Shown here: piece after piece, positions 1,749 through 31,260 of the stretch
Layout: every line of letters begins with the position of its first letter
How positions within the stretch are numbered: position 1 is the stretch's first letter
DNA from: Phycisphaera mikurensis NBRC 102666
Lineage (GTDB): Bacteria; Planctomycetota; Phycisphaerae; Phycisphaerales; Phycisphaeraceae
Direction of reading: 5' to 3'
Assembly (NCBI RefSeq): GCF_000284115.1
Contig: NC_017080.1
Span: 3,540,001-3,572,000, forward strand
Length of the DNA: 32,000 nucleotides
The notes under the pieces: generated by a model
The model's input: the letters and a program-made list of their open reading frames with translations, nothing else
Databases searched by the model: none
Told to the model about the DNA's origin: nothing
Made by a program: the position numbers and the translations under genes

Positions 1749-3776
1749 TCAGCCGCCCCGCTCCGCCAGCAGCTGCGTGTCGTCTTCGTAGCAGTAGACC
1801 CAGCCCGCGCCGGGCTCCCCCGCGTCCACCGGCTCCACGATCGGGTGCTCGGCGGCCCGGGCGTGCGCCCGCGCGTGCCGGTTCGGGGACGCGTCGCAGC
1901 AGCCGACCGCCCCGCACGCGGCGCAGCGGCGGAGGTGGACCCACGGCTCACCGGCCGCCACGCAGGCCGGGCACACGAGCCCGGCCCGCGCGGCTCCGGG
2001 CAGCGGCGGGAGCCGCAGCATCTCCGCGTGCGTGCACGCGGCGGAGGCGCCCGGCCCCGCGTCGACGGGCTCGGCGGGCACGTGGTGCAGCCCCGCCACC
2101 CACGCCGCCAGCTCGCGGCGGAAGGCCGCGTCGTCTCCGCCGGGCACGAAGAGGCGCGGCGGCGTGAGGCGCGGGTCGGCCTCGATCGCGTGCCGCACCG
2201 CCTCGGCCGCCTCGGGCGTGTCGTCGGCGACGATGACGGCCGCCGCGTCGGCTGCGCCCGCGGCGAGCAGGGCCTCGGCGCGCGTGTTGCTCCCGCGGTG
2301 GACGACGAGGGCCCCGCCACCGGCGGGCCGGAGCTCGCGCTCCGCCTCCGCCTCGAGCGTCGACGCCCGCCCCGGGTCCAGCGTCACCACGCTCACGTCC
2401 AGCGGCGAGCTTCGCAGCAACCCCAGCAGCGACTCCGCCCGCTCGCCGTACCCCGCCAGCACCACCCGCGGCCGGTCGCCGCCGCCTCCGGAGCCGCGGA
2501 CCGCCGGCGTTTCCGCCGATCCGGGACCGCGGTCCGCGGATCCCGCTGCCCCCACGAGCTTCCGCGAGGCGGCCGAGAGCAGCGGCGTGGCCAGCATCGA
2601 GACCACCGTCGCCGCGATGAACAGGTTCACGCCGCGCTCCGCAGCGCCGCCGGGCGTCAGCCCCGCCGCCGCCCCGGTCGCCTGCAGCACGAAGGCGAAC
2701 TCGCCCACCTGGGCCGTGAGCAGCCCCGCCGCGCCCGCCACCGCCCAGCGGCCGCCCGCGAGCCGCACCCCCGCCGCCGTGACGAGCGCCTTGAGCGCCA
2801 CCAGCGCCAGCACGCAGCCGACCACGGCCAGCGGGTTCGCCCAGACGAAGCCCGGGTCCAGCCGCATGCCGACCGAGGCGAAGAACACCGCGGAGAACAG
2901 CACCTGCAGCGGCATCACCTCGCCGAAGGCGTGGTGGCTGAAGCGGCTCTCGCTGATGAGCAGCCCCGCGAGGAAGGCCCCCAGCGCGAGGCTCACGCCG
3001 GCCAGCGACGTGAGCCAGGCGAGCCCGAAGCACACCGCCACGAGCGTCAGCAGGAAGACCTCCGCCGAGCACGTGCGTGCCACCCGCTCGATGACCGCCG
3101 GCACGATCCGCCGGGCGAGCAGCAGCACCGCCGCGACGATCCCGCCCGCCTTCGCCAGCGCCCACAGGAGCGCCGGCACGCCCCCGGCCCCGCCGTCCGC
3201 CCCGCCCGCCGCCGAGTCGCCCGCCGAGGTCGCCGCTCCGAGCATCGGCACCACCAGCACCATCGCCACCACCGCGAGGTCCTGGAAGATCAGCACCCCC
3301 AGCGTCGCCTGCCCCTCGTCGCTGCCGGTCCGCCGCTCGCCCGCCAGCAGCTTGAGCACGATCGCCGTCGACGACAGCGACACGAGGCACCCCGTGAAGA
3401 CCGCCGCCCGCCAGCCGACGCCCGCAACCACCAGCACCGCCGCCACCGCGGCGACGGTGCCGATCACCTGCGCGGCCCCCGCGATGAAGATGAGCCGCGA
3501 GATCTTCGCCAGCTTCTCCAGCGAAAACTCGATGCCGATCGTGAACAGCAGCAGCACGACGCCCACCTCGGCAAGCTGCGCAACCATCGCGTCGTCCTCC
3601 ACCACGCCCAAGCCGAAAGGCCCGAGCAACACGCCCGCGAGCAGGAAGCCGAGGATCGGCGCGACGCCGACCTTCACGCACGCGAAGGCGATGGCGGCGC
3701 AGCCCAGCAGCAACGCCACCATCTCCGGCAGCCGCGGGAGGGCGTCGCCGGCGGCGAGGGTGGCTCGGAGCATCAT
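1749..3776 (-). CDS. CPA2/Kef-type monovalent cation:proton antiporter with a TrkA-N/RCK-like segment and a C-terminal UBP-type zinc-finger module
   Basis: ATG (revcomp of 3774-3776), 675 aa. The N-terminal ~400 aa form a multi-pass membrane domain of Kef/CPA2 appearance (ILGFLLAGVLLGPFGLG, LLLFTIGIEFS, many Gly/Ala/Leu helices). A soluble Rossmann-like part follows (RVVLAGYGERAESLLGLL...VVTLD). The last ~95 aa are a Cys/His-rich module (CPAC...WVHLRRCAACGAVGCCDASPNRHARAH...HP...WVYCYEDD). Confidence 0.85.
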   Translation of the reverse strand: MMLRATLAAGDALPRLPEMVALLLGCAAIAFACVKVGVAPILGFLLAGVLLGPFGLGVVEDDAMVAQLAEVGVVLLLFTIGIEFSLEKLAKISRLIFIAGAAQVIGTVAAVAAVLVVAGVGWRAAVFTGCLVSLSSTAIVLKLLAGERRTGSDEGQATLGVLIFQDLAVVAMVLVVPMLGAATSAGDSAAGGADGGAGGVPALLWALAKAGGIVAAVLLLARRIVPAVIERVARTCSAEVFLLTLVAVCFGLAWLTSLAGVSLALGAFLAGLLISESRFSHHAFGEVMPLQVLFSAVFFASVGMRLDPGFVWANPLAVVGCVLALVALKALVTAAGVRLAGGRWAVAGAAGLLTAQVGEFAFVLQATGAAAGLTPGGAAERGVNLFIAATVVSMLATPLLSAASRKLVGAAGSADRGPGSAETPAVRGSGGGGDRPRVVLAGYGERAESLLGLLRSSPLDVSVVTLDPGRASTLEAEAERELRPAGGGALVVHRGSNTRAEALLAAGAADAAAVIVADDTPEAAEAVRHAIEADPRLTPPRLFVPGGDDAAFRRELAAWVAGLHHVPAEPVDAGPGASAACTHAEMLRLPPLPGAARAGLVCPACVAAGEPWVHLRRCAACGAVGCCDASPNRHARAHARAAEHPIVEPVDAGEPGAGWVYCYEDDTQLLAERGG

Positions 3777-5198: not shown

Positions 5199-5246
5199 CC
5201 CGCGGACCGCCGCCGCTCCCAGCGGTCTCCGCCGCCGGTCCGCGGG
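5199..5246. terminator. GC-rich stem-loop between convergent genes (candidate bidirectional terminator; no U-tract)
   Basis: CCCGCGGACCG (5199-5209) and CGGTCCGCGGG (5236-5246) are perfect 11-bp inverted repeats. An inner CCGCT/AGCGG pairing sits in the 26-nt loop. The element lies between the VWA stop (5140) and the acyltransferase stop (5315). No T/A run flanks it, so its function is uncertain. Confidence 0.3.
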
Positions 5247-6025: not shown

Positions 6026-6735
6026 GCCTCGCCGCCGGGCTTGCGGAACGCGAAGAGCCAGCTGTGAAACGGCGTGCGGCCCCACAGCGGGCGGGCCTCG
6101 ACGCTGAAGCCGGCGGCGGCGAAGGGCGCAGTGACGCCCTCGACGGTCGGGAAGTGCCGCGCGGGCTGGGTCATCCAGCCGGCGAGGCGGATCGTCGCCT
6201 CCTCGATCCGCGTCGCGGCGTAGCGCCACGAGCGGGCGCGGGGCGTGGCACGCAGGACGACCCAGCCGCCGGGGCGGACGGCGGCGGCGAGAGCGTTCAG
6301 CAGCGGCTCCTGATCCGCGGCGGGGAAGTAGTGCAGCACGTCGAGCATCACGACGTGGGCCCACGCTCCGGGCCCGAGCAGGCCCGGCTCGTCGCCGCGG
6401 CCGACGCGGAGCGTGGTGGCCGCGTCGCCGGCGGCGGCAAGCGCCTGCCGCCCGTCGCGGATCTTCGGCTCGTCGGGATCGACGCCCGTGACCTCGCCGA
6501 CCCAGCCGCACGCGCGCAGCCAGAACGCGAGCAGACCGAGGCCGCACCCCACGTCGAGCAGCGGGCCCGGCGTGACGGGCCCGGCGAGCAGCCGCTCCGC
6601 GACCGCGGCGTACGCCGGGTCGGTCCTGAGCTTGCCCGCCGCGTAGTGGCGGTGGTAGCGGCCGCCAAGCCCGCCGCGGAACCGCCGGGCGATCCGCTGG
6701 ATCGCGTCCGCTCCCGGGGGCGGCGTGCCGCTCAC
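6022..6735 (-). CDS. Class I SAM-dependent methyltransferase
   Basis: GTG start (revcomp of 6733-6735) overlaps the hisI TGA (6732-6734) as GTGA. SAM-binding motif I is LLDVGCGLGLLAFWL, followed by VTGVDPDE, a post-I acidic residue, VVMLDVLHYF and PGGWVVL. The N-terminal 240 aa of track ORF 6022..7455 are Arg-rich shadow sequence overlapping hisI. Confidence 0.8.
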   Translation of the reverse strand: MSGTPPPGADAIQRIARRFRGGLGGRYHRHYAAGKLRTDPAYAAVAERLLAGPVTPGPLLDVGCGLGLLAFWLRACGWVGEVTGVDPDEPKIRDGRQALAAAGDAATTLRVGRGDEPGLLGPGAWAHVVMLDVLHYFPAADQEPLLNALAAAVRPGGWVVLRATPRARSWRYAATRIEEATIRLAGWMTQPARHFPTVEGVTAPFAAAGFSVEARPLWGRTPFHSWLFAFRKPGGEA

Positions 6736-7205
6736 GCGCCCCCGTAGACCTTCTCGGGATCGAACACCCGCTGCTCGACGATCTTCAGCCCCTCGCCCTC
6801 GACCGCCCGGTAGAAGCAGCCCGGGAAGCCGACGTGGCACGACGCCGCGACGCCGCCGGCGCCGTCGGCCGTGGCGGCCCCGATCCGCACCCTCGCGAGC
6901 ACCACGTCCTGGTCGCAGTCGGTCCGCAGCTCCACCACCGCCTGGCTCATCCCGCTGCTCTCGCCTTTCCGCCAGAGCTTGGCCCGGCTCCGCGACCAGT
7001 AGTGGACGAAGCCGGTGTCGATGGTCGCCCGCAGCGACTCCGCGTTCATGAACGCGAACATCAGCACCTCGCCCGTGTCCGCGTGCTGGGTGACGCAGGG
7101 GATGAGGCCTTCCCGGTCGAAGCGCGGCGTGAACGCGTGCCCGAGCTCGAGGGCCTTCTTCTCGGCGGGCGGCTCGGGGAAGCTCTTTGGAGGAGGCGCG
7201 GGCAT
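6732..7205 (-). CDS. hisI: Phosphoribosyl-AMP cyclohydrolase (monofunctional HisI)
   Basis: ATG (revcomp of 7203-7205), 157 aa. HisI signature blocks are GLIPCVTQHADTGEVLMFAFMNAESL, YWSRSRAKLWRKGESSG, LRTDCDQDVVL and CHVGFPGCFYR. There is no HisE (pyrophosphohydrolase) extension. Confidence 0.9.
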   Translation of the reverse strand: MPAPPPKSFPEPPAEKKALELGHAFTPRFDREGLIPCVTQHADTGEVLMFAFMNAESLRATIDTGFVHYWSRSRAKLWRKGESSGMSQAVVELRTDCDQDVVLARVRIGAATADGAGGVAASCHVGFPGCFYRAVEGEGLKIVEQRVFDPEKVYGGA

Positions 7206-7340
7206 CGGGAGAAAGGTACCGGCAGGAAGTCGCGTGGCCGCCGCAGCGCCTCGCCCGAGGGGCTGCTCCTCGGGCTCCGCCGGAGGGAACCCCGCGTACG
7301 CCCGCTCCTGCGGTGGACCGCTGGATCGCGAAGCGATATC

Positions 7341-8057
7341 GCGGCCGGGCTGGCTGCGAGAGCTGAGCGGCGACGCCGCTCTGTCTGCCCTGTGCGCGAG
7401 GGAGCTGCATCGCGGCTCGGACAGCGTGGCGTCGCCACGCAGCTAGCGCGGCCAAGCTGGCTCCGAAAGCTGAGCGGCGACGCCGCTCTGTCTGCTTGTG
7501 CGCGAGGGAGCTGGATGGGGAGTCGGACAGCGTGGCGTCGCCACGCAGCTAGCGCGGCCAGGGGCTGGCTGCGAGAGCTGAGCGGCGACGCCGCTCTTTC
7601 TGCTTGTGCGCGAGGGAGCTGCATCGCGACCCGGACAGCGTGGCGTCGCCACGCAGCTACCGCGGCCAAGCTGGCGGCGAGAGCTGAGCGGCGACGCCGC
7701 TCTGTCTGCCTTGTGCGCGAAGGAGCCGGATCGCGACCCGGACAGCGTGGCGTCGCCACGCAGCTAGCGCGGCCAAGCTGGCTCCGAGAGCTGAGCGGCG
7801 ACGCCGCTCTGTCTGCTTGTGCGCGAAGGAGCTGCATCGCGACTCGGACAGCGTGGCGTCGCCACGCAGCTACCGCGGCCAAGCTGGCGGCGAGAGCTGA
7901 GCGGCGACGCCGCTCTGTCTGCTTGTGCGCGAGGGAGCTGCATCGCGGCTCGGACAGCGTGGCGTCGCCACGCAGCTAGCGCGGCCAGGCTGGCGGCGAG
8001 AGCTGAGCGGCGACGCCGCTCTGTCTGCTTGTGCGCGAAGGAGCTGGATCGGGGCCA
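7341..8057. repeat. Tandem array of ~6.7 copies of a 106-108 bp unit, each with two invariant 17-nt perfect palindromes
   Basis: Unit starts were read off the sequence at 7341, 7448, 7554, 7662, 7769, 7875 and 7981. The last copy diverges after ~8055. GAGCGGCGACGCCGCTC is present and identical in 7/7 copies. GCGTGGCGTCGCCACGC is identical in copies 1-6. The linkers carry substitutions and 1-2 bp indels. The array occupies the ppk-hisI intergenic region. Confidence 0.95.
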
Positions 8058-8137
8058 GACCGCGAGCCCGGAACCGGTGGCCACACCTCTCCCGGCGCGG
8101 CACGCAGATCGGGTCGTGTCCGGAGCTTCACCGCCGC

Positions 8138-10396
8138 TCACTCGTGCCGCGAGCGGGTGAACGCCATCAGACGCTCGTGCGTCCCCGGCGCGTCCTCCCC
8201 GGGCTCGGGTCGCCGCAGGGTGTAGTTGCCGTCGGCGTCCATGTCCCAGGCCAGGCGGCGGTCGGTGCGGAGGATGTCGAGCAGGTGGTCGATGCGCTTC
8301 CGCAACGCCGGGTCGTAGATCGGGGTGATGCACTCGACGCGGTTGTTCAGGTTGCGGTACATCCAGTCCGCGCTGCCGATGAAGGTCTCCGGCTCGCCCG
8401 CGTTGTGGAAGCGGAACACCCGGCTGTGCTCGAGGAATCGGCCGATGACGCTGCTGACCTCGATGTTCTCGGAGAGACCGGGCACGCCGGGGCGGATGCA
8501 GCAGAAGCCGCGCACGAAGAGCTCGACCTTCACGCCGACTCGGCTCGCGGCGTAGAGCCGGCGGGCGATGCCGTGGTCCTCGAGTTGATTCATCTTCGCG
8601 ACGATCGACGGGCGGTCGGGGTCGGCGGGGTCGCTGCCGCGCTCGACCCAGCCCGCGGCGTGATCGATCTCCCGCTGGATGAGCTGGCCGAAGCGGCGGC
8701 GCATGTTGACCGGAGCGATGAGCAGGTGGTCGAAATCTTCCTTCAGGCTGCGGCCGGTGAGGAAGTGGAACAGCTCGACCAGGTCGCGGGTGATCCGCTT
8801 GTCGGCGGTGAAGAGGCCCAGATCGGTGTAGAGGTTGGCGGTCTTGGAGTGGTAGTTGCCGGTGCCGATGTGGGCGTAGACCTTCATCCCGGCGTCCTCC
8901 TCGCGGACGACGAGCGCAGTCTTGGTGTGGGTCTTGAGGCCGACGAGGCCGTAGACGACGTGCACGCCGGCCTTCTCCAGCCGTCGCGCCAGCTGCACGT
9001 TGCGCTCTTCGTCGAAGCGGGCCTTCAGCTCGACCAGGCACACGACCTGCTTGCCGGCCTCGGCGGCGGCGATGAGCGTGGGGATGAAGGGCGAGTCGGT
9101 GCCGGTGCGGTAGAGCGTGAGCTTGATCGCGACGACCTTGGGGTCGCGGGCGGCCTGCTTGATGAAGGCCTCGACGCTGTGCTCGAAGCTCTCGTAGGGG
9201 TGGTGCACGAGCAGGTCCCCCTGGCTGACCGTGGCGAAGACGTCGGACCCGCCCGCGGTGGACTCGCCGGCCACCAGGCGCGGCGGGGTCATCGGCTTCC
9301 ACTTGGGGTACTTGAGGTCGGGCCGGTCGACGGCGGCGTGCACCGCGAAGAGGTCGGTGTAGTCGAGCTCGGCGGTCATCCGGTAGATGTCCTCCTCCCG
9401 CAAGCCCAGCTCGGCGAGCAGGTAGCGGACCATCGGGTGGTCCGCCTCGGCGTCGACCTCCAGCCGCACGCAGCTGGCGAAACGCCGGTCACGCAGCTCC
9501 TGGTTCACCAGCTCGAGCAGGTCTTCGGCGTCCTCCTCGTCGCGCTCCAGGTCGGCGTTGCGGGTGATGCGGAAGGGCTCGCAATGGACGACCTCCATGC
9601 CCTCGAACAGCCGGCCGAGGTTCTGGCGGATGATGTCGATGAGGGCGACGAAGCGGTAGACGTCGCGGCCGTCCTCGTCCCGCTCGCCCGGCCGGTGCAA
9701 CGCGACCCACTGCGGCATCATCGCCGGCACCTTGACGCGGGCGAACTCCAGCGCGGGGCCCTCGGGGTCGTCGGGGTCGTCGAGCACGGCGGCGGCGTCG
9801 GAGTTGGCGCCGATGCCCGACTTCGCCGGCGGGCGGAGCATGACGCCCAGCGAGGTGGACAGGTTGGAGAGGAACGGGAAGGGGTGCCCGGGGTCGACGG
9901 CGAGCGGGGTGAGCAGCGGGAAGAGCTGCTCCTCGAAGTAGGCGTTGGCCGTCTGCTGGTCGGCGTCGGAGAGCTTCGCCCACGGGAGCAGGTGGATGCC
10001 CTCGGCGGAGAGCTTCGGCTTGAGGTCCTCGGCGAAGCACTCCGCCTGCTTGGCGAGCATGGGCAGCACCTGCTCGCGGATGCCGTGCAGCTGCTCGGTG
10101 GCGGTCCTCCCGTCGGGGCTGCGCTGCGTGAGCCCCGCCTTGATCTGCCGCTTCAGCCCTCCCACCCGCTTCTGGAAGTACTCATCGAGGTTGGAGTTGA
10201 AGATCGCGAGGAAGGCGATCCGCTCCAGCAGCGGCGTCCGCTCGTCGCAGGCCATGTGCAGCACGCGCTTGTTGAAGATGAGCCACTGCGTCTCGCGGTT
10301 GAGGAAGTGGTCCTGCTCGTCGGGCGCAGCGATGGCGGCGTCGGGGTCGGGGGCGGGACGCGGGGTCCGTTTGCGGCGGTGGGAGGTCTTGGCCAT
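8138..10396 (-). CDS. ppk: Polyphosphate kinase 1
   Basis: ATG (revcomp of 10394-10396), TGA at 8138-8140, 752 aa. It is PPK1-like throughout: FLNRETQWLIFNKRVL, ERIAFLAIFNSNLDEYF, LLVHHPYESF, the autophosphorylation-region TGTDSPFI, two PLD-like HKD-type blocks (LKTHTKTALVVR, GTGNYH) and SADWMYRNL. Sequence upstream of Met in track ORF 8138..11254 is Pro/Arg-rich shadow. Confidence 0.95.
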   Translation of the reverse strand: MAKTSHRRKRTPRPAPDPDAAIAAPDEQDHFLNRETQWLIFNKRVLHMACDERTPLLERIAFLAIFNSNLDEYFQKRVGGLKRQIKAGLTQRSPDGRTATEQLHGIREQVLPMLAKQAECFAEDLKPKLSAEGIHLLPWAKLSDADQQTANAYFEEQLFPLLTPLAVDPGHPFPFLSNLSTSLGVMLRPPAKSGIGANSDAAAVLDDPDDPEGPALEFARVKVPAMMPQWVALHRPGERDEDGRDVYRFVALIDIIRQNLGRLFEGMEVVHCEPFRITRNADLERDEEDAEDLLELVNQELRDRRFASCVRLEVDAEADHPMVRYLLAELGLREEDIYRMTAELDYTDLFAVHAAVDRPDLKYPKWKPMTPPRLVAGESTAGGSDVFATVSQGDLLVHHPYESFEHSVEAFIKQAARDPKVVAIKLTLYRTGTDSPFIPTLIAAAEAGKQVVCLVELKARFDEERNVQLARRLEKAGVHVVYGLVGLKTHTKTALVVREEDAGMKVYAHIGTGNYHSKTANLYTDLGLFTADKRITRDLVELFHFLTGRSLKEDFDHLLIAPVNMRRRFGQLIQREIDHAAGWVERGSDPADPDRPSIVAKMNQLEDHGIARRLYAASRVGVKVELFVRGFCCIRPGVPGLSENIEVSSVIGRFLEHSRVFRFHNAGEPETFIGSADWMYRNLNNRVECITPIYDPALRKRIDHLLDILRTDRRLAWDMDADGNYTLRRPEPGEDAPGTHERLMAFTRSRHE

Positions 10397-10646: not shown

Positions 10647-12224
10647 TCACCTCGACTCCGTGAGCGCGTAGCAGACGTCGCCGTGGAGGAGGTACAGGCG
10701 CAGCGCGGGCCCGAGCTTCTTGGCCAGGGAGAGGCCCAGGTCGGGCCGGTCGGTGACGAGGTGGGGCACGGGATCGGCGGCGTCGACGCGGCGGTGGGGC
10801 TGGGCGGCCGACAGCCAGTCCTGGTGCTCGCGGGCCCATTCGGCGGCGTCGCGGAGGGCGAGCATCGCCTCGCGGGGGTGGGGGTGCTCGGCGGAGTGGG
10901 TGTGGCGTGCGAGCAGGTGCAGGCGGCCGTTGGCGTCGAGCGCGAGCTGGACGAGCGGCTGGCCGGGGCAGCCGGGCTGGATCGCCTCGAGACGGGGCCC
11001 GGAGGGCCGGGCGGTGGAGAGGCGTTCGAGCAGGCCCTCCAGCGGGGCCGCGGGGTGGGCGGGCGCTTCGTCCTCGGCGTCGCCGGCCGCGGCGTGCCGC
11101 CGGTGGAGGTCGAGCGAGCGGACGGCGGCGGCGCCGCGGATCGCCGGGCTTTCCGGGTCGGAAGGGGCTTGGGTCCGCGGCTCCGCGGGGTCGGGCCCGG
11201 AGCCGGCGGACGCGGCCGGCGGCCCGGGCTCCGGATCCGCCGCCTGCTCGGCATCGGGCAGGCTGCGGAGCCAGCCCAGCAGCGAGGCCCAGGGGTCGGG
11301 GCCGTCGCCGCGGCGGACGAAGCCCAGCGGCGTGCGGGCCACGGGGTTCATCCGCGGCAGGCTGCCCAGCGGCTCGGGCGGGCTGTCGACGTCGTCGACG
11401 AGGGCGCGGGCCAGCGCCCCGGCGGCATCCCGGGCGGCGGGCGGCTCCGAGCCCATCACCATGAGCCCGAAGCCCGCGGAAGCGATCGCGGGAGCGACGC
11501 CGATGAGCCGGCGGAGCATCGCGGCCGCGCCCTCGATGGCGACCGGGTCCGCGCCCGAGAGCAGCGACCAGTCGGCGACGCCGGCGAACCGCGCGGCGGC
11601 CTCGGGGCCGTCGACGCCGGCGTTCACGAGCACGGCCGCCGGCGCGCGGGTGGCGTGGGTCAGCAGCGTCGCGACCCGCTCCCGCAGCCCGGCCTCGGGA
11701 GAGAGGCGCTCCAGCACCGCGGCGGCGTCCCCGCCGCCGGGGCCGATCCACTCCAGCTCGAAGCCTTCGCCGACGCCGCTCTCGGGAGCCGTGCCCAGCG
11801 GGTCCTCCTCGTCTTCCTCCTGGATCGGGTGCAGCAGCAGCACCGGCCCGTCGCGGTGGGCGATCAGCTGGGCGTACTGCGGCAGCCAAGCGGAGGCCAA
11901 GCCCGGCAGGTTGCCGAGCAGGACGGCCTCCAGGGGCGGCGATGCGGCGGGCCGAGGGGCGGGGTCGGCGGGCACCTCGCGGCCGGCGAGCTTGAGGCGG
12001 TGGGCCGGGCCGGCCGCGCCCGGAGGCGGCGCAGCGGGACCCGGGCGGGCGGGAGGCGGGTCGCCCGGGGGCGGAGCCGCGCCGGCCCCGGCGGCGGGCT
12101 TGGGGCGCAGCCGGACGGGTGCCGGGCCGCCGAGGCCCGGCGGCGCATCGCCAGGGGGGCTCAAGAAGAGCGTGGCGAGATCGTCGAGGGTCTGGCTGTC
12201 GTCCATGACAGGGTCTTTCTCCAT
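10647..12224 (-). CDS. Hypothetical 525-aa protein with Pro/Ala-rich disordered segments and a possible degenerate (Walker-A-less) ParA/MinD-like core
   Basis: ATG (revcomp of 12222-12224). It is the only frame in this interval with protein-like composition (acidic N-terminus MEKDPVMDDSQTLDDLATLFL, balanced D/E/L/V). It sits 130 bp downstream of the ParA-like gene on the same strand. I recognise no family with certainty. Confidence 0.6.
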   Translation of the reverse strand: MEKDPVMDDSQTLDDLATLFLSPPGDAPPGLGGPAPVRLRPKPAAGAGAAPPPGDPPPARPGPAAPPPGAAGPAHRLKLAGREVPADPAPRPAASPPLEAVLLGNLPGLASAWLPQYAQLIAHRDGPVLLLHPIQEEDEEDPLGTAPESGVGEGFELEWIGPGGGDAAAVLERLSPEAGLRERVATLLTHATRAPAAVLVNAGVDGPEAAARFAGVADWSLLSGADPVAIEGAAAMLRRLIGVAPAIASAGFGLMVMGSEPPAARDAAGALARALVDDVDSPPEPLGSLPRMNPVARTPLGFVRRGDGPDPWASLLGWLRSLPDAEQAADPEPGPPAASAGSGPDPAEPRTQAPSDPESPAIRGAAAVRSLDLHRRHAAAGDAEDEAPAHPAAPLEGLLERLSTARPSGPRLEAIQPGCPGQPLVQLALDANGRLHLLARHTHSAEHPHPREAMLALRDAAEWAREHQDWLSAAQPHRRVDAADPVPHLVTDRPDLGLSLAKKLGPALRLYLLHGDVCYALTESR

Positions 12225-12354: not shown

Positions 12355-13755
12355 TCAGGCGCCGGCGGGCTCCGGCGCGGCGGGGACGCGAACCGGGCTC
12401 GCGGGCACCCTCGCCGGGTCCGCGACCACCGGCTCCGCGACCACCTCCGCCACGCTGTTCGCCTCGCCGAGCGGGTTCACCTCGGTCAGGCGGTTGAAGG
12501 GATCGGCCGCCCACTGCCCGTCGATGACGAGGCGGTAGGCGTGGCGGCCGGCGGGCAGCTTCACGAGCGCCTGCCAGACGCCGAGCTCGGCGTTGCGGGT
12601 CATCGCGGTCGCTTCGGGGTCCCAGCCGTTCCAGGAGCCGGCGATCGTGATCCGGGCGCCGGCGTCGCCGGGCTGGACGAAGAGCGTCCCGTTGCGGGTG
12701 CAGCGGCATCCGCAGAGCCGCTCGATCGCGGCGGGCAGGACCGCCGGGGTGGGTGCGGCCGGCGGGGTGTCCCGCGCGGCGAGCGACTCCGCGTTGCGGC
12801 GGGAGAGGTCGCGGGTGCGGGCCACGAGCTCGGCGGCGCGGGACAGGCGGGCCGGTCCCGCGGCCCCGGCCGGCGTCGGGTCCGGCGCGGTGTCGCCGGG
12901 GACGGGCGCCGGCGCCTCGCCCGCCGGGTTCGCGTCCCGCGTCTCCGCCGCGAGCGGGGCCAGCATCTCCGCGGGCTCGGGCGGGTGGGCGACCAGCCAG
13001 TCGGCGAGCTTCACGAAGTCCGCCGCGGCCGAGCCGTCGGGATCGTACTCGCCGATCGCCCGACCGAAGCCGGCGGCCTCACGCAGCTTCTCGTCCTCGT
13101 GGATGCAAAGCGGCAGCACCTGCTCGCCGAAGTGCCGCTTCATCTGCCCGAGGATTTCGCGGTCGATGTTCCGGTCGGCCCGGTGCAGCGTGGGCAGCAC
13201 GCTGAAGCGGACGCGGTGGCCGGCCCGGCGGGCGAGCATGTCGATCGTCCGGGCCTGCTTGATGGCGCCCTGGAGCGCGAAGTAGCCGGTCTCCACCGGG
13301 ATGAGCACCTCCTGGCAGGCCCGCAGCGCGTTGAAGGTGAGCAGGCCGATCGACGGCGGGCAGTCGATGATGCAGTGGGCGTAGTCGCCGCCCTCCGCCC
13401 GCCCGAGCACCGCCGCCAGCCGCCGGTCCCGGTCCGAGGCGTTGGAGAGGCGCTGCTCGATGCCGGCGAGCGCGAGGCTGGAGGGCAGCAGGTCGAGGTT
13501 CCGGCGGACCCGCCAGAGGCAGTCCTCGAAGGCGATCGGCTCGCCCTCGGCGTTGCGTCCGCCGCCGAGCAGGTCGGCCACGCCGTGCTCGATCCCGTCC
13601 TCGGGCACCGAGAGGCCCAGGGCGCAGTGGCTCTGGGGGTCCATGTCCACGAGCAGCGTCTTGCGGCCGCGGCGGGCCAGCTCCGAGGACAGGTGGATGG
13701 CGGTGGTGGTTTTCCCGCACCCGCCCTTCTGGTTGATGATCGCCGTGGTTCGCAA
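12355..13755 (-). CDS. ParA/Soj-family deviant Walker-A ATPase fused to a C-terminal CBM48/AMPK-beta-like (E-set) glycan-binding module
   Basis: TTG start (revcomp of 13753-13755) gives MRTTAIINQKGGCGKTTTAIHL, a deviant Walker A with the signature Lys. Further ParA-like blocks are LLVDMDPQ, IIDCPPSIGLLTFNAL and VLIPVETGYFALQG. A ~100-aa Pro/Ala linker follows. Residues ~353-438 (nt ~12442-12699) read TLFVQPGDAGARITIAGSWNGWDP...GVWQALVKLPAGRHAYRLVIDGQWAADPFN, the classical CBM48/AMPK1_CBM pattern. Confidence 0.9.
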   Translation of the reverse strand: MRTTAIINQKGGCGKTTTAIHLSSELARRGRKTLLVDMDPQSHCALGLSVPEDGIEHGVADLLGGGRNAEGEPIAFEDCLWRVRRNLDLLPSSLALAGIEQRLSNASDRDRRLAAVLGRAEGGDYAHCIIDCPPSIGLLTFNALRACQEVLIPVETGYFALQGAIKQARTIDMLARRAGHRVRFSVLPTLHRADRNIDREILGQMKRHFGEQVLPLCIHEDEKLREAAGFGRAIGEYDPDGSAAADFVKLADWLVAHPPEPAEMLAPLAAETRDANPAGEAPAPVPGDTAPDPTPAGAAGPARLSRAAELVARTRDLSRRNAESLAARDTPPAAPTPAVLPAAIERLCGCRCTRNGTLFVQPGDAGARITIAGSWNGWDPEATAMTRNAELGVWQALVKLPAGRHAYRLVIDGQWAADPFNRLTEVNPLGEANSVAEVVAEPVVADPARVPASPVRVPAAPEPAGA

Positions 13756-19452: not shown

Positions 19453-20536
19453 GGCTGTCCAACGGAGCGAAACGCGCGACGGTTCGACCGCGGCAGGAAG
19501 AACGGGCCCATCGGCGTGTCCGCACCGGCAGATGAGCAGATCGGCCGTGGTTCAACTCGCTCCAGCCTCACGCTCGGGGCTTCTCCAGGCGGCCCACGAT
19601 GCGTCCGCACGCACCGCCGGCAGCGCCCGGCCGGCTCGATCCTGGAGCGCCACGCCCACACAGAACCGAACCCGGCAGCGGGCGCCGGATCGCCGCCACC
19701 GCAGAAGCCGCGGGCGGAGCGGATCCCGGCGGCGTGGGTTGCAGCCGGGTGCTCCGGCGGCGGGCCCGAGAAGCCACCCGCGGGCGGCGGAGCGACGCCC
19801 GCCCGGGGTGGGCTCTGCCCCCGCTTGCGCCCGACCGCGCGCACCTCCTGCTCGGACCGGGGCGGCAAGCGGGCAGGACCGACGGGCGCGGGCATCGCCA
19901 GTCCAGCGGACTGCTCGCCCGTGGCATGCGATCGAGCCGCGGCTTCCGACCGGGCGGTCGTGGCCGCCCGCGGTCCGCGGGCAGAGCGGCCACGCAGCGA
20001 CGCGTGTTCGGACGTTTCGAGCACGAGCTGCTCCCTTCGCCGTGCCCGCGGCCACGGGCAGCCGCGGCACCGACGCCCCGAGGACACGCCGCGGTGGCTG
20101 GATGCGAGGCGTTCGGCGGGCCGGCTTCCGCCGAGGCGCAGCGCAAACCGAAGACGCCTGATCCCGCGCAGGGTGCCGAGCCCCGCCTTTGCCTCTCCGG
20201 CCCCCCGCCGCGTCTCTGCCGCGGTCAAGGGATCCGGCGTCCGCCGAGCCGCCGGATCCGCCGAAGTCTGAGGCGGAGGCGTACGCATTCCGGGTCAAGC
20301 GGGGGCGTGCGGGCGAGGTGCGGGCATCGACGATCCAGCAAGCGTCCCGGACGCGCGGGCCGCGACAGCCGCGGACCGAAGCCAATCCAGCCCGCAACGG
20401 CCGACGGTCCGCGGCAGCGCCGGCAGCGTTGGTTCCTCCACCGCCAACCGCAGCGGACGACGTGACCGCAGCGGTGGAGGATGCGCAAGCCGCTCTCCGC
20501 CGGCGTCTACGGCGCGTCCGCCCGGGCCGCGCATGC

Positions 20537-20571: not shown

Positions 20572-20680
20572 AGCCGGCAATGACCTACTTTCCCGCGGTT
20601 GCAGTATCATCGGCGTGCTGGGCTTAACGGCCGTGTTCGGAATGGGAACGGGTGGGACCCCAGCACTGTTGTCACCGGCA
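20572..20680 (-). rRNA. rrf: 5S ribosomal RNA
   Basis: The reverse complement reads TGCCGGTGACAACAGTGCTGGGGTCCCACCCGTTCCCATTCCGAACACGGCCGTTAAGCCCAGCACGCCGATGATACTGCAACCGCGGGAAAGTAGGTCATTGCCGGC. It contains the universal CCGAAC...GTTAAGC core, the GGGAA.GTAGGTC element and terminal helix I pairing. The ends are +/- a few nt. Confidence 0.9.
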
Positions 20681-20826: not shown

Positions 20827-23619
<2,793 letters not shown>

Positions 23620-24162: not shown

Positions 24163-24172
24163 CGGCCCCGCC

Positions 24173-24259
24173 GGTGCGGTGGCTGAGTGGTCGAAGGCTG
24201 CGGTTTTGAAAACCGCCGGGCGGGCAACCGTCCCGTGGGTTCGAATCCCACCCGCACCG
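24173..24259 (+). tRNA. tRNA-Ser, anticodon UGA (87 nt, long variable arm, CCA not encoded)
   Basis: Manual cloverleaf: acceptor GGTGCGG/CCGCACC plus discriminator G; D arm GCT-GAGTGGTCGAA-GGC; anticodon stem GCGGT/ACCGC with loop TT-TGA-AA; an 18-nt variable arm CGGGCGGGCAACCGTCCC; T arm GTGGG-TTCGAAT-CCCAC. It is colinear with E. coli tRNA-Ser(UGA). Confidence 0.95.
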
Positions 24260-24313
24260 TGATGAGCCGTCTTGGGCGGCTCCGCCTTCCCTCAACCCGA
24301 CCCCCACCCCGCG

Positions 24314-27222: not shown

Positions 27223-28646
27223 GCCGGTGGCTCCGCCGGCGGGCGGGTCTCCGCCACCGCCGGCCCGTCGGCGGGCCCCGCGGCCGGGGCGCCGCCGACG
27301 CCATCGTCGACCAGCGACCACCGCGGCAGCGGCGGGACGAGCCGGACGTGCTCCTGCACGCAAGCGAACGCCTTCATGAGAACCATCCGCCACCGGACGC
27401 TGAAGCGGGCCCGGGGGAAGGCGCGGCCGGTCAGCAGCTCCAAGCTCGCCCGATGCACGCCCAGCGGACCCTCGCCGTGGTGGAGCAGATCGCGGTACGC
27501 GGGCCGGTAGTAGCTGCGGATCATGGAGAAGAGCACGCGGTGGCTCGCTGCGAGGCGGCGGGCGTAGCGGCGGCCGGGTGCGCGGAAGGCGGCGGCGCGG
27601 GCGGCGTCCGACGCGTCGGCGGGAAGCCGGTCGAGCGCGGCCAGCGACGCCTCGGCGGCTTCCGCCGCCCACCGCCCGCTCTTGATCGCGATGGAGACGC
27701 CGCCGGAGAAGACCGGGTCGATGAAGGCCGCGGCGTCGCCGACGAGCAGGTGGCCGGGACCCGCGGTCGGGCCGCACCGATAGGAGAAGTCCGCGGCGAC
27801 CCGGTTGCCGTCGGGGAACGCGGCGTCGCGCGTGCGGCGTGCGACCTCCGGGCAGCGGGCGATCGCCCAAGCCAGCACGCGGTCGGGCTTCACGCGTTGC
27901 TCCCGGGCGAGGCCGGCGGGGAGCACGACGCCGATGCCGGTCCGCTCGTCGTCGATCGGGATGATCCAGAACCAGCCCTCGTCGAGCATGACGACCGTGA
28001 GGTGGCCGCCCTCGGGCATGGGGCTGCGCTCGACGCCGGTGAAGTGGCCGAAGTAGGCGGTCCGCTCGTGGCCGGGCTCGTTGCGGCGGAAGCCGCGGCC
28101 GGCTCTCTCCAGGTGCCGGGCGGCGAGGGTGGCCTGGCCGCTGGCGTCGATCAGGCAGCGGGCGGAGACGGGCCCCTGGGTGGTGCTCAGCCGCACGCCC
28201 CCGGACCCGAGCCGCTCGATGCCGCGGACCGTGACGCCGCGGCGGACGTCCGCCCCGCCGTCCGCGGCCTCCTGCAGCAGCCACGCATCGAAGGGCTCTC
28301 GCTCGGTGTTGGTTGCCGCCTGCGGGTCGGCGTCGAGGGCGTCCGCGAAGCGGAGCGGCCGGCCGGGGGCGGTGCCCGCGGCGGAGACGAAGGTCACGCC
28401 CGGCTTGGGCACGCGGGGGAGCGCCGCCGCCCGCTCGGCGAGGCCCAGGCGGGCGAGGTCGGCTTCCACCTCGGGCAGCAGCGACTCGCCGACGTGGAAG
28501 TGCGGACCCGTCTCGCGTTCGAGGACCGCCACCCGCCGGCCCGAGCGGGCGAGGCACAGCGCCGCGACCGCCCCGCCGGGGCCGCCTCCGACGACAACGG
28601 CATCCAGGGTCTCCTCTCCTGGGCCTGGGTGCGGGTTGGGAGCCAT
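27183..28646 (-). CDS. FAD-dependent oxidoreductase with flavin-dependent halogenase signature motifs
   Basis: ATG (revcomp of 28644-28646), 487 aa. It has the dinucleotide fold DAVVVGGGPGGAVAALCLA, FHVGESLLP, Lys81 in VPKPGVTF, GWFWIIP (W-x-W-x-I-P; nt 27957-27974) and FIDPVFSGG (F-x-x-P-x-x-S-x-G). Confidence 0.85.
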   Translation of the reverse strand: MAPNPHPGPGEETLDAVVVGGGPGGAVAALCLARSGRRVAVLERETGPHFHVGESLLPEVEADLARLGLAERAAALPRVPKPGVTFVSAAGTAPGRPLRFADALDADPQAATNTEREPFDAWLLQEAADGGADVRRGVTVRGIERLGSGGVRLSTTQGPVSARCLIDASGQATLAARHLERAGRGFRRNEPGHERTAYFGHFTGVERSPMPEGGHLTVVMLDEGWFWIIPIDDERTGIGVVLPAGLAREQRVKPDRVLAWAIARCPEVARRTRDAAFPDGNRVAADFSYRCGPTAGPGHLLVGDAAAFIDPVFSGGVSIAIKSGRWAAEAAEASLAALDRLPADASDAARAAAFRAPGRRYARRLAASHRVLFSMIRSYYRPAYRDLLHHGEGPLGVHRASLELLTGRAFPRARFSVRWRMVLMKAFACVQEHVRLVPPLPRWSLVDDGVGGAPAAGPADGPAVAETRPPAEPPAQGRGRIVSSASR

Positions 28647-29366: not shown

Positions 29367-29532
29367 GGGCCGGCCCAACCTAGCAGGCACGCTCCGCGTG
29401 CCGTGGATGGCGCAGCCACGCGTCGGCTCGGGGGCCTCGCGAAGTTCAGCCGCCGGAGCAACAGAAGGGAGTCTGCCGGCTGCTTCTTGCAACGACCGGG
29501 ATTCCGCGGACCGTCGGGCTTCCTCGACGCTT

Positions 29533-31260
29533 TCAGCCGCGGTCCGCGGATTCTTCGGCACCGGCGAGGGCGCCGCCCTTGCGGGAGGCCTCGGCGATGC
29601 GGCGCAGCTCCGGCATCACCGCCGACAGGTCCGCCGCTCTGTCCACGCCCCCGAAGGCGTCGTGCAGCTTCTTGTAGATCGCGAAGAGCTCGGCGTACGC
29701 CGCGACCGAGCGGGGCTCGGGTTGAAAAACGCGCTCCTTCACGTGGGCCATCCTCGCCTGTGCCTCCTCCACCGAGACGAACGCGCCCGCCGCCACGGCG
29801 GCGGAGAGGGCGGCGCCCAGGCCGCAGGTCTGCGAGCTCGCGGCGGTCTTGATGGGGCGGTCGAGCACGTCGGCGTACACCTGCATCGCCATCGGGCTCT
29901 TCTCGGCGATGCCGCCGCAGACCACGACCTCGTCGACGCTCACGCCGCCGCTCTCGAAGCGGTCGACGATGACCTTCGCCCCGAAGGCGGTTGCCTCGAC
30001 GCAGGCCCGGTACACCTCCGCCGCCGTGGTGTGCAGCGTCTGCCCGAGCAGCAGGCCGGACAGCCGCGGGTCCACGAGCACCGTGCGGTTGCCGTTGTTC
30101 CAGTCGAGCGCCACCAGGCCGCTTTGGCCGGGGCTGAGCTTCTCGGCCTCGGCGTTGAGCGCGGCGTGAGCCTCGCCGCCGGTGCCGTAGCGCCCGGGCG
30201 TCAGCTGCGCAACGGCCCAGGCGAAGAGGTCGCCCACCGCGGACTGCCCCGCCTCCAGCCCGGCCATGCCGCCGATGACGCTGCCGTGGACCACGCCGCA
30301 GAGGCCCTCGATCTCCGGCACCGAGCCATCGGCCGCGAGGTCGCCGACGGTGATGTCGCAGGTGCTCGTGCCCATGATCTTCACCAGCACGCCGGGCTTC
30401 ACGCCCGCACCGACCGCCCCCATGTGAGCGTCGAAGGCCCCGATGGCGACGGGGATCCCGCTCGGCAGCCCGCACGCCCGGGCGAGGTCGTCGCGGAGGA
30501 TCCCGGCCTTCTCGTTAGGCGGGAAGGCCTCGGCGTAGAGCCGGTCACGCAGCCGAGCCAGCGCCGGGTCCAGCGCCGCGAGGAAGTCTTCGCTGGGCAG
30601 CCCGCCCCACCGCTCGCTGAACATCGCCTTGTGCCCGGCGGCGCACACGCTGCGCTTGAGCGTCTCCGGCGTGGTGTCGCCGCAAGCCCAGGCCGTCAGG
30701 TAGTCGCAGCACTCCACCCAGCTGTGCGCGGCCTCGAAGACGTCCGGCGCCACCCGCTTGCACCGCAGGATCTTGCTCCAGAACCACTCGCTGGAGTAGG
30801 TGCCGCCGCAGGCGGCGAGGTACGGCTCGCCGCGCTCGCGGGCGAGCGTGGTGATCTCCGCCGCCTCGGCGTGGCCGGTGTGGTCCTTCCAGAGCCACGC
30901 CTGCGCGGCGAGGTTCTCGCTGAAGCGCTCCTGGTGCGACAGCGGGGCCCCGTTGGCGTCGACCGGCAGCGGCGTCGAGCCGGTGGTGTCGATGCCGACG
31001 GCGACGACGCCGGCGGGATCGTGGCCCGCGGCCTCGAGGTCCTCCAGGGCGCCGCTCACCGCCTCGGCGAAGCCGTCGGTCCAGTCCTGCGGCCGCTGGC
31101 GTGCGAGGTCCGGGTCGGCGGGATCGAGCAGGATCCCGTTCTCGCCGGAGGGGTACGCGAAGACGCGGGAGGCGAGCTCGGCGCCGTCTTCGAGCGAGAC
31201 GACGACTGCGCGGCAGGAGTTGGTTCCGTAGTCGATGCCGAGGGAGAGAGGAGCAGGCAT
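29533..31260 (-). CDS. araB: Ribulokinase (FGGY carbohydrate kinase family)
   Basis: ATG (revcomp of 31258-31260), 575 aa. It is colinear with E. coli AraB: LGIDYGTNSCRA, GIDTTGSTP, WKDHT, YSSEWFWSKIL, GAFDAHMGAVGAG, GTSTCD, LEAGQSAVGDLFAW, LDWNNGNRT, ATAFGAKVI and CGGIAEKS. The N-terminal 75 aa of track ORF 29533..31485 are excluded. Confidence 0.9.
   Translation of the reverse strand: MPAPLSLGIDYGTNSCRAVVVSLEDGAELASRVFAYPSGENGILLDPADPDLARQRPQDWTDGFAEAVSGALEDLEAAGHDPAGVVAVGIDTTGSTPLPVDANGAPLSHQERFSENLAAQAWLWKDHTGHAEAAEITTLARERGEPYLAACGGTYSSEWFWSKILRCKRVAPDVFEAAHSWVECCDYLTAWACGDTTPETLKRSVCAAGHKAMFSERWGGLPSEDFLAALDPALARLRDRLYAEAFPPNEKAGILRDDLARACGLPSGIPVAIGAFDAHMGAVGAGVKPGVLVKIMGTSTCDITVGDLAADGSVPEIEGLCGVVHGSVIGGMAGLEAGQSAVGDLFAWAVAQLTPGRYGTGGEAHAALNAEAEKLSPGQSGLVALDWNNGNRTVLVDPRLSGLLLGQTLHTTAAEVYRACVEATAFGAKVIVDRFESGGVSVDEVVVCGGIAEKSPMAMQVYADVLDRPIKTAASSQTCGLGAALSAAVAAGAFVSVEEAQARMAHVKERVFQPEPRSVAAYAELFAIYKKLHDAFGGVDRAADLSAVMPELRRIAEASRKGGALAGAEESADRG

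Follow-up and report, generated by a model that had tools for sequence, protein, structure and literature searches.

The repeat array at the ppk1–hisI junction

In a 32,000-nt window of Phycisphaera mikurensis NBRC 102666, whose positions serve as coordinates throughout, a tandem array of palindromic units is situated between ppk1 (polyphosphate kinase) and hisI (phosphoribosyl-AMP cyclohydrolase). Both genes lie on the minus strand, and the array takes up most of the 933-bp gap between them, with the ppk stop codon 80 nt from one edge and the hisI start codon 135 nt past the other. Tandem Repeats Finder (TRF) reports a single array at 7340–8051 with a period of 106, 6.7 copies, 92% matches, 1% indels, and a score of 1192. 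The successive units measure 107, 106, 108, 107, 106, and 106 bp, followed by a 77-nt partial unit. Two 17-nt perfect 8-1-8 palindromes, P1 (GAGCGGCGACGCCGCTC) and P2 (GCGTGGCGTCGCCACGC), share the core GGCG-N-CGCC and recur along the array. Exact P1 is present in 7/7 units (starts at 7365, 7472, 7580, 7686, 7793, 7899, and 8005) and exact P2 in 6/6 units (starts at 7424, 7530, 7638, 7745, 7851, and 7957). The spacing alternates between 58–59 bp (P1 to P2) and 48–50 bp (P2 to P1), and palindromes of the same type are separated by 106–108 bp, approximately 10 helical turns. The array, unit lengths, palindrome counts, and alternating spacings had already been described in an initial annotation of this DNA, and all are reproduced at the same positions by TRF and exact matching.

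The array is non-coding, as the initial annotation had argued. The G+C content at third codon positions (GC3) is flat, ranging from 0.69 to 0.75 in every frame across the array, compared with 0.96–0.97 in hisI and ppk, in a window of 72% G+C. Stop codons interrupt all six frames and the unit lengths are not multiples of three; a coding repeat is therefore rejected. Translations of both strands find no match among 5.8 billion protein clusters.

An assembly artefact is probably not involved. The draft assembly GCA_014207395.1 (L001) contains the identical array and has 0 mismatches with the window over 17,205 common nucleotides, an agreement that is not proven independent confirmation since the window was possibly cut from that assembly. 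For short reads, the array is an assembly breakpoint. One short-read Logan contig (L002, SRR12223476) stops at position 7377, within the first P1 and 172 nt upstream of hisI, and a second (SRR29904083) starts at the same distance from the gene, as expected at a repeat.

Architecture of the 25-nt module

One asymmetric 25-nt module, AGCTG-MGYGGCGACGCCRCK-CTGTC, underlies both P1 and P2, which represent two variants of it. Its inner part is 15 nt long, its feet are AGCT and GACA, and the variants lie in opposite orientations, P1 on the plus strand and P2 on the minus strand. With up to 3 mismatches allowed, a degenerate pattern of the module with 21 specified bases matches 13 times, where 0.00 matches are expected. 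The initial annotation had P1 and P2 differing at two symmetric position pairs and at the centre. The two pairs hold, namely A2-T16 versus C2-G16 and C4-G14 versus T4-A14; the centre difference vanishes with P2 read on the opposite strand, where both variants have A as the centre base. Each pair difference preserves the local complementarity of the palindrome, and by simple combinatorics the chance that four random differences in 25 positions make two complementary symmetric pairs is approximately 2.5e-4.

The 13 modules, P1 and P2 together, alternate in orientation along the array and are joined by two alternating types of linker. The tail-to-tail linkers, located between CTGTC and GACAG, are 33–34 nt long and hold most of the variable columns of the unit alignment. 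The head-to-head linkers, located between CAGCT and AGCTG, are 23–25 nt long and partly self-complementary, so that a P2 module, its head-to-head linker, and the following P1 module form a 73-nt imperfect palindrome with arms of 35–36 nt that are 77–81% complementary. Table 1 lists the features of the locus.

Table 1. Features of the array and its flanking genes (window positions).
Feature	Position	Strand	Remarks
Tandem array	7341..8057	.	6 full units of 106–108 bp and a 77-nt partial unit; non-coding; TRF, unit alignment, GC3
P1 module 1	7361..7385	+	AGCTG-AGCGGCGACGCCGCT-CTGTC; 17-nt palindrome 7365-7381
P2 module 1	7420..7444	-	Inverted 25-nt module; palindrome 7424-7440
P1 module 2	7468..7492	+	
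P2 module 2	7526..7550	-	
P1 module 3	7576..7600	+	Sole module with a change: tail CTGTC to CTTTC
P2 module 3	7634..7658	-	
P1 module 4	7682..7706	+	
P2 module 4	7741..7765	-	
P1 module 5	7789..7813	+	
P2 module 5	7847..7871	-	
P1 module 6	7895..7919	+	
P2 module 6	7953..7977	-	
P1 module 7 (last)	8001..8025	+	Followed by a partial long linker
Long tail-to-tail linker (example)	7386..7419	.	
Short head-to-head linker (example)	7445..7467	.	
ppk1 (polyphosphate kinase, 752 aa)	8138..10396	-	Pfam; gene call in L001; 100% match to P. mikurensis PPK1
hisI (phosphoribosyl-AMP cyclohydrolase, 157 aa)	6732..7205	-	Pfam; exact protein in P. mikurensis assemblies

Invariance of the palindromes

Invariance was measured on a MAFFT alignment of the 7 units, comprising 109 columns. 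Twenty of these columns are variable and none falls within the 34 palindrome columns (hypergeometric P = 2.2e-4, or 1.0e-3 without indel columns), which bears out the earlier observation that the palindromes stay constant while the linkers vary. Within the 50 module columns, a single column is variable, compared with 27% of the linker columns. The invariant stretch is wider than the palindromes themselves, measuring 22 nt at P1 and 28 nt at P2. This pattern indicates that the palindromes are under purifying constraint and that the feature kept is the local hairpin or dyad.

A neutral minisatellite is a rather unlikely account of the same pattern. Here, a hairpin-containing intergenic segment would have expanded by slippage or unequal crossing-over, and concerted evolution together with hairpin-templated (quasi-palindrome) correction would have kept it uniform with no selection. 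Consistent with this, the array is species-specific and situated at a synteny breakpoint, and variants occur as a mosaic common to non-adjacent units, which indicates recombination between units. The array edges also decay: the partial long linker after the last P1 decays by about 8064, and unit-like sequence past the edges is not significant against shuffles. In addition, template-switch repair makes imperfect palindromes perfect and yields symmetric double changes. However, it fixes the mutant about as often as the original, and the symmetric variants thus expected in 13 copies are not seen. The boundary between module and linker is likewise sharp, columns 76–79 varying directly beside an invariant GGACAG where a conversion-tract gradient would be gradual, and the invariance reaches into the non-palindromic flanks.

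Distribution of the module

Outside 7340–8060, the 32-kb window contains no second copy of the module at up to 3 mismatches. Exact-module scans, which would miss diverged copies, give 2 matches in metagenomes, both in one dioxygenase-like coding sequence, and 0 in viral contigs; blastn against plasmids and phages gives no match. In the representative genomes (596 Gb), the exact-module scan gives 1 match, inside a gene of a Myxococcales metagenome-assembled genome, and misses the array itself. The window is presumably masked in that collection and the remaining P. mikurensis genome presumably covered, which is the main caveat on this distribution. These three matches, all within coding sequence, are taken as chance. 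The initial annotation had pointed to hundreds of dispersed copies as the mark of a generic REP-type element; none is found in the window or in the collections scanned, so the array is locus-specific within them.

The corresponding loci of relatives were inspected next to hisI (L004–L007) and next to ppk (L010–L012). Relatives with HisI 76–80% identical carry unrelated genes 44–118 bp upstream of hisI. In L010 (PPK 85% identical), ppk is followed by feoAB after 131 bp. Neither array nor module is present next to hisI in these loci or next to ppk in L010, which is the one ppk contig long enough, L011 and L012 ending 156 and 69 nt after ppk and being little informative. Among the genomes inspected, the ppk/hisI junction and its array are thus specific to P. 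mikurensis. The literature on P. mikurensis repeats offered nothing relevant.

Predicted folding and transcription signals

Each 17-mer is predicted to form a 7-bp stem closed by a triloop, with a free energy of -11.4 to -11.6 kcal/mol, and the 25-nt module folds at -11.4 to -13.9 kcal/mol. Alternatively, neighboring modules are predicted to pair into hairpins of 83–91 nt with energies of -51 to -59 kcal/mol; both registers and both strands allow this. The whole region is predicted to be much more stably folded than shuffles, with z = -8.3 for the sense (minus-strand) RNA and z = -12.5 for the antisense (plus-strand) RNA. Within each palindrome, all four positions at which P1 and P2 differ are Watson–Crick paired, whereas in the inter-module helix three of the four are unpaired and the fourth is a G-U wobble. 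By these predictions, it is therefore the local dyad, rather than the long hairpin, that has been preserved.

Around the array (6500–9000 scanned), no promoter-like site is found and there is one terminator-like site, on the antisense strand. Upstream of hisI, the relatives have no conserved block that could represent a shared promoter or leader. At the gathering threshold of Rfam 15, the window yields rRNA and tRNA only, and a known RNA family is rejected. The array itself draws generic miRNA-precursor hairpin models only, at 15–30 bits against thresholds of 63–200.

These signals bear on the idea that the units are tandem small-RNA genes with a promoter and a terminator apiece, as in NsiR1 of Nostoc, which we consider very unlikely. 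Each unit is predicted to fold stably, and a tail comparatively rich in T (CTGTCTGCTTGTG) comes after P1 on the plus strand; one copy passes the terminator scan. Against this, no unit contains a sigma-70-like promoter, with the reservation that planctomycete promoters are poorly known; no Rfam family exceeds about one third of its gathering score on the array, and there is no conservation outside the P. mikurensis strain.

Comparison with known repeat systems

By its arrangement, the array is best described as a set of palindromic units, non-coding and lineage-specific, that shares its architecture with E. coli BIME-2; its closest counterpart is REP325. REP325, located between yjdM and yjdN in E. 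coli, consists of six 77-bp units, each containing a Y and a Z2 palindrome and a linker; it is flanked by co-directional genes, has its transcription driven by the upstream gene's promoter, and gives rise to naRNA1-6, which act with HU (PMC4550694). Both clusters are tandem repeats (six in REP325, 6.7 here) of two different palindromic units with constant linkers, the units alternate in orientation in an intergenic position between co-directional genes, and cruciforms or hairpins are predicted on both strands. Two alternating variants, two alternating linker types, and tandem repetition, the features of BIME-2 architecture, are thus all present. There are differences as well: the module is found at one locus, where REPs occupy about 355; its palindromes are 17 nt long and perfect, not imperfect and approximately 35 nt; the unit is 106 bp instead of 77 bp; a GTAG foot is absent; and the host is a planctomycete with 72% G+C. 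The likeness is one of sequence layout.

The wider REP and REPIN families share with the array a short G+C-rich stem-loop with asymmetric conserved flanks and inverted dimers 20–100 bp apart, in tandem (PMC3733652); their clusters consist of dimers reiterated in tandem with flanking DNA (PMC3733652). At 25 nt, the module also falls within the 20–40 nt of an extragenic stem-loop palindromic unit. Other REP features are lacking. High copy number and dispersal over many intergenic regions are not seen within the collections scanned, and the unpaired GTAG or CGTC at the stem foot that belongs to the definition (PMC3733652) is missing: GTAG stands beside only 2/13 modules, displaced 3 nt from the stem, and CGTC occurs only at the P2 centre. 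Meanwhile, no RAYT or other Y1 transposase, which the initial annotation had envisaged as flanked by such repeats, is present among the 19 window proteins (Pfam). The initial REP/BIME-2 reading is accordingly kept for its architecture; family membership, to judge from copy number and tag and from the genes of the window, is not supported.

A true REP/REPIN member, with modules serving as substrates of a Y1 HUH transposase (RAYT-type or class 3) encoded elsewhere and with diverged copies, is very doubtful. A hairpin with conserved asymmetric flanks would match the recognition logic of RAYT and IS200/IS605. In addition, class 3 Y1 transposases (TnpA-Y1), found chiefly in Planctomycetes, have hairpins on their flanks whose 5' foot is CnGA (PMC6006769), and each of the two modules gives C[G/A]GA-CA-palindrome when read in one orientation. 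The resemblance is a weak lead: CnGA has three specified bases, the C[G/A]GA of the modules lies two bases from the stem, and the match may be chance. Besides the missing tag and the lack of a Y1 transposase or second locus in the window, the only match in the representative genomes is coding, and P. mikurensis is not named in two supplementary files of the Y1-transposase survey.

The initial annotation had also considered a centromere-like site analogous to sopC of the F plasmid. Both consist of direct tandem repeats that each contain an inverted repeat, and a ParA-family gene lies in the neighborhood. That gene (12355-13755), however, is 4.3 kb from the array, beyond a 525-aa open reading frame (ORF) and ppk, and carries a CBM48 domain; the array is chromosomal, and the ParA-like cluster is kept in L010 without the array. 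These differences disfavor the sopC-like reading, and no ParB or helix-turn-helix domain is found in the neighboring proteins (Pfam).

Mycobacterial MIRUs and the NIMEs of Neisseria are 40–150-bp tandem repeats between co-directional genes, and NIMEs alternate short inverted-repeat elements with longer repeat units. Unlike the array, those families occupy many loci per genome. MIRUs also carry short ORFs coupled to the flanking genes, whereas the array has no coding-like frame. A CRISPR array is rejected: successive modules face opposite ways, and each of the two "spacers" recurs at about 90% identity.

A proposed role on the ppk–hisI transcript

The reading that we favor, tentatively and with a probability of roughly 0.45, is a lineage-specific tandem amplification of an inverted pair of hairpin modules that acts via stem-loops on the ppk–hisI transcript. 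The inverted pair (P1 on the plus strand, P2 on the minus strand) and its two linkers were amplified approximately 6.7 times at the ppk/hisI junction, in this model by unequal recombination or replication slippage. Transcription across the array would be on the minus strand, giving the ppk 3' region or ppk–hisI intercistronic RNA, which may fold in two ways: as 13 G+C-rich stem-loops, each of approximately -11.5 kcal/mol, or as six P2/P1 hairpins of greater length, at -51 to -59 kcal/mol. In enterobacteria, stacks of REP/BIME hairpins block 3'-to-5' exonucleases, attenuate read-through, and can yield small hairpin RNAs. By analogy, the stem-loops of the array could serve as exonuclease barriers, attenuators, or processing sites, and the expected outcome would be uncoupled expression of ppk and hisI. 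The structured RNAs or stabilizing hairpins proposed in the initial annotation are plausible in this light, agreeing with everything seen and paralleling REP325.

Several points weigh against this reading. Joint transcription with ppk, processing of the RNA, and an influence on either gene are deduced from sequence and analogy. None of the 13 hairpins has a sense-strand U-tract, so they are not classical intrinsic terminators. No covariation among units supports the long hairpins, because the paired columns never vary, and the alignment offers no choice between the two folds. The 13 stems contain no G-U-compatible transitions, which fits a constraint at the DNA level or on specific sequence no less well than an RNA stem. 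A local hairpin leaves the conserved asymmetric flanks (AGCT, TGTC) unexplained. Furthermore, with the array absent from the closest relatives, any function would be dispensable at the genus level, which argues against a deeply conserved role.

Sequence-level invariance together with the conserved asymmetric flanks keeps protein-recognition readings alive. In one of these, the 13 dyad 17-mers form a duplex-DNA array of high-avidity sites for a dimeric protein. A nucleoid or anchoring factor could bind there, the sites could act in titration or serve as structural sites of gyrase or HU type, or a regulator could act from them upstream of hisI. The palindromes are perfect, their sequence is constrained beyond structure with zero variation in 13 copies, and same-type sites recur about every 10 helical turns; in E. 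coli, gyrase binds to BIME-2 elements and HU acts together with REP325 (PMC4550694; PMC6006769). Nevertheless, no gene for a DNA-binding regulator lies beside the array, the array is missing from relatives, including L010 with its conserved ParA-like cluster, and the asymmetric flanks are not explained by a symmetric dimer. The unit length drifts by 1–2 bp, so the phasing is not strict, and P1 and P2 differ at two positions in each half-site, both of which one protein would have to tolerate. On balance, protein binding of this kind is unlikely.

A further reading is improbable. Here, the array would be a dedicated locus-specific platform and not a by-product, offering 13 dyad sites to a dimeric DNA-binding or nucleoid-organizing protein or giving rise to small REP325/naRNA-like two-hairpin RNAs that work with a nucleoid protein. 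The host is a planctomycete not known to divide with FtsZ. If such a platform exists, BIME-2-type architecture can arise and be selected at a single locus, independent of REP and RAYT.

Seen at one locus and missing from the closest relatives, the array is a curiosity and not a system of a new kind. Should it indeed be confined to a single locus, BIME-2 architecture can form without a genome-wide REP family or RAYT, which bears on the origin of such clusters by local amplification versus transposase activity. Thirteen invariant modules set against drifting linkers also provide a clean, small target for work on binding or RNA processing in a phylum with almost no characterized cis-elements, and the array may be used as a copy-number (variable-number tandem repeat, VNTR) marker for P. 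mikurensis strains.

Neighboring genes and other repeats

The initial calls of ppk, hisI, the 525-aa protein, and the ParA-like ATPase are correct. Three of these genes, all on the minus strand, form a cluster comprising the ParA/MinD-type ATPase, a protein without a Pfam domain (10647-12224), and ppk1. The ATPase includes a fused CBM48 (AMPK1_CBM) domain of the glycogen-binding type. L010 (6195-11902) preserves the cluster, and the no-Pfam protein, of about 520–530 aa, also precedes ppk in L011 and L012. Speculatively, the three genes could constitute a ParA-type positioning system for a storage granule of glycogen or polyphosphate.

A second element, 46 nt long, is dispersed in the window. 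It has the form CCGCGGACCG-N26-CGGTCCGCGG, often extended to gAAT...ATTc, and occurs in exact copies at 2494-2539, 5200-5245, 20369-20414, and 29504-29549, with a 1-mismatch copy at 28222-28267 and a degenerate N27 copy at 11134-11180. Allowing up to 2 mismatches, 5 matches occur in the window where 0.01 would be expected, and the loci of relatives (L004, L005, L007, and L010) add 14 further copies, one of them directly after ppk (L010, 11919-11964). The arms are invariant; the interior is variable in sequence and 26 nt long in 18/20 copies, and RNAalifold supports a base helix of 10–11 bp only. Most copies lie at gene 3' ends or in intergenic DNA, including one just downstream of the 5S rRNA gene, and a few are located in called ORFs. 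The element is not in Rfam, has 0 matches in viral contigs, and bears no sequence relation to the array. It looks like a genus-wide REP-like or terminator-like family. At a density of approximately 1 per 6 kb, a real REP-like family is easily visible in such a window, and P1 and P2 behave otherwise.

One copy of the 46-nt element is situated within the gene of a Na+/H+ exchanger (1749-3776, minus strand), in the linker between the exchanger and TrkA_N domains. This protein also carries a C-terminal zf-UBP zinc finger, a domain named by Pfam after ubiquitin hydrolases. Elsewhere in the window, 5S rRNA (20572-20679, minus strand) and 23S rRNA (20834-23610, minus strand) occur without 16S upstream; the next genes are tRNA-Ser on the other strand (24172-24260, plus strand) and then a receiver-domain gene. 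Unlinked rRNA genes are usual in Planctomycetes. The low-G+C stretch at 21–24 kb is due to these rRNA genes.

Contig L004 of a relative contains a 134-bp tandem duplication (12708-12953; 1.8 copies, 96% identity) between adjacent Uma2-family genes. Within hisI itself, a 16-bp perfect palindrome, CGCGTTCATGAACGCG, is located at 7041-7056 and is identical in three related taxa (L005 10189, L006 2919, and L007 10153). Most simply, it would reflect a conserved peptide motif (AFMNA in one frame) rather than a DNA signal.

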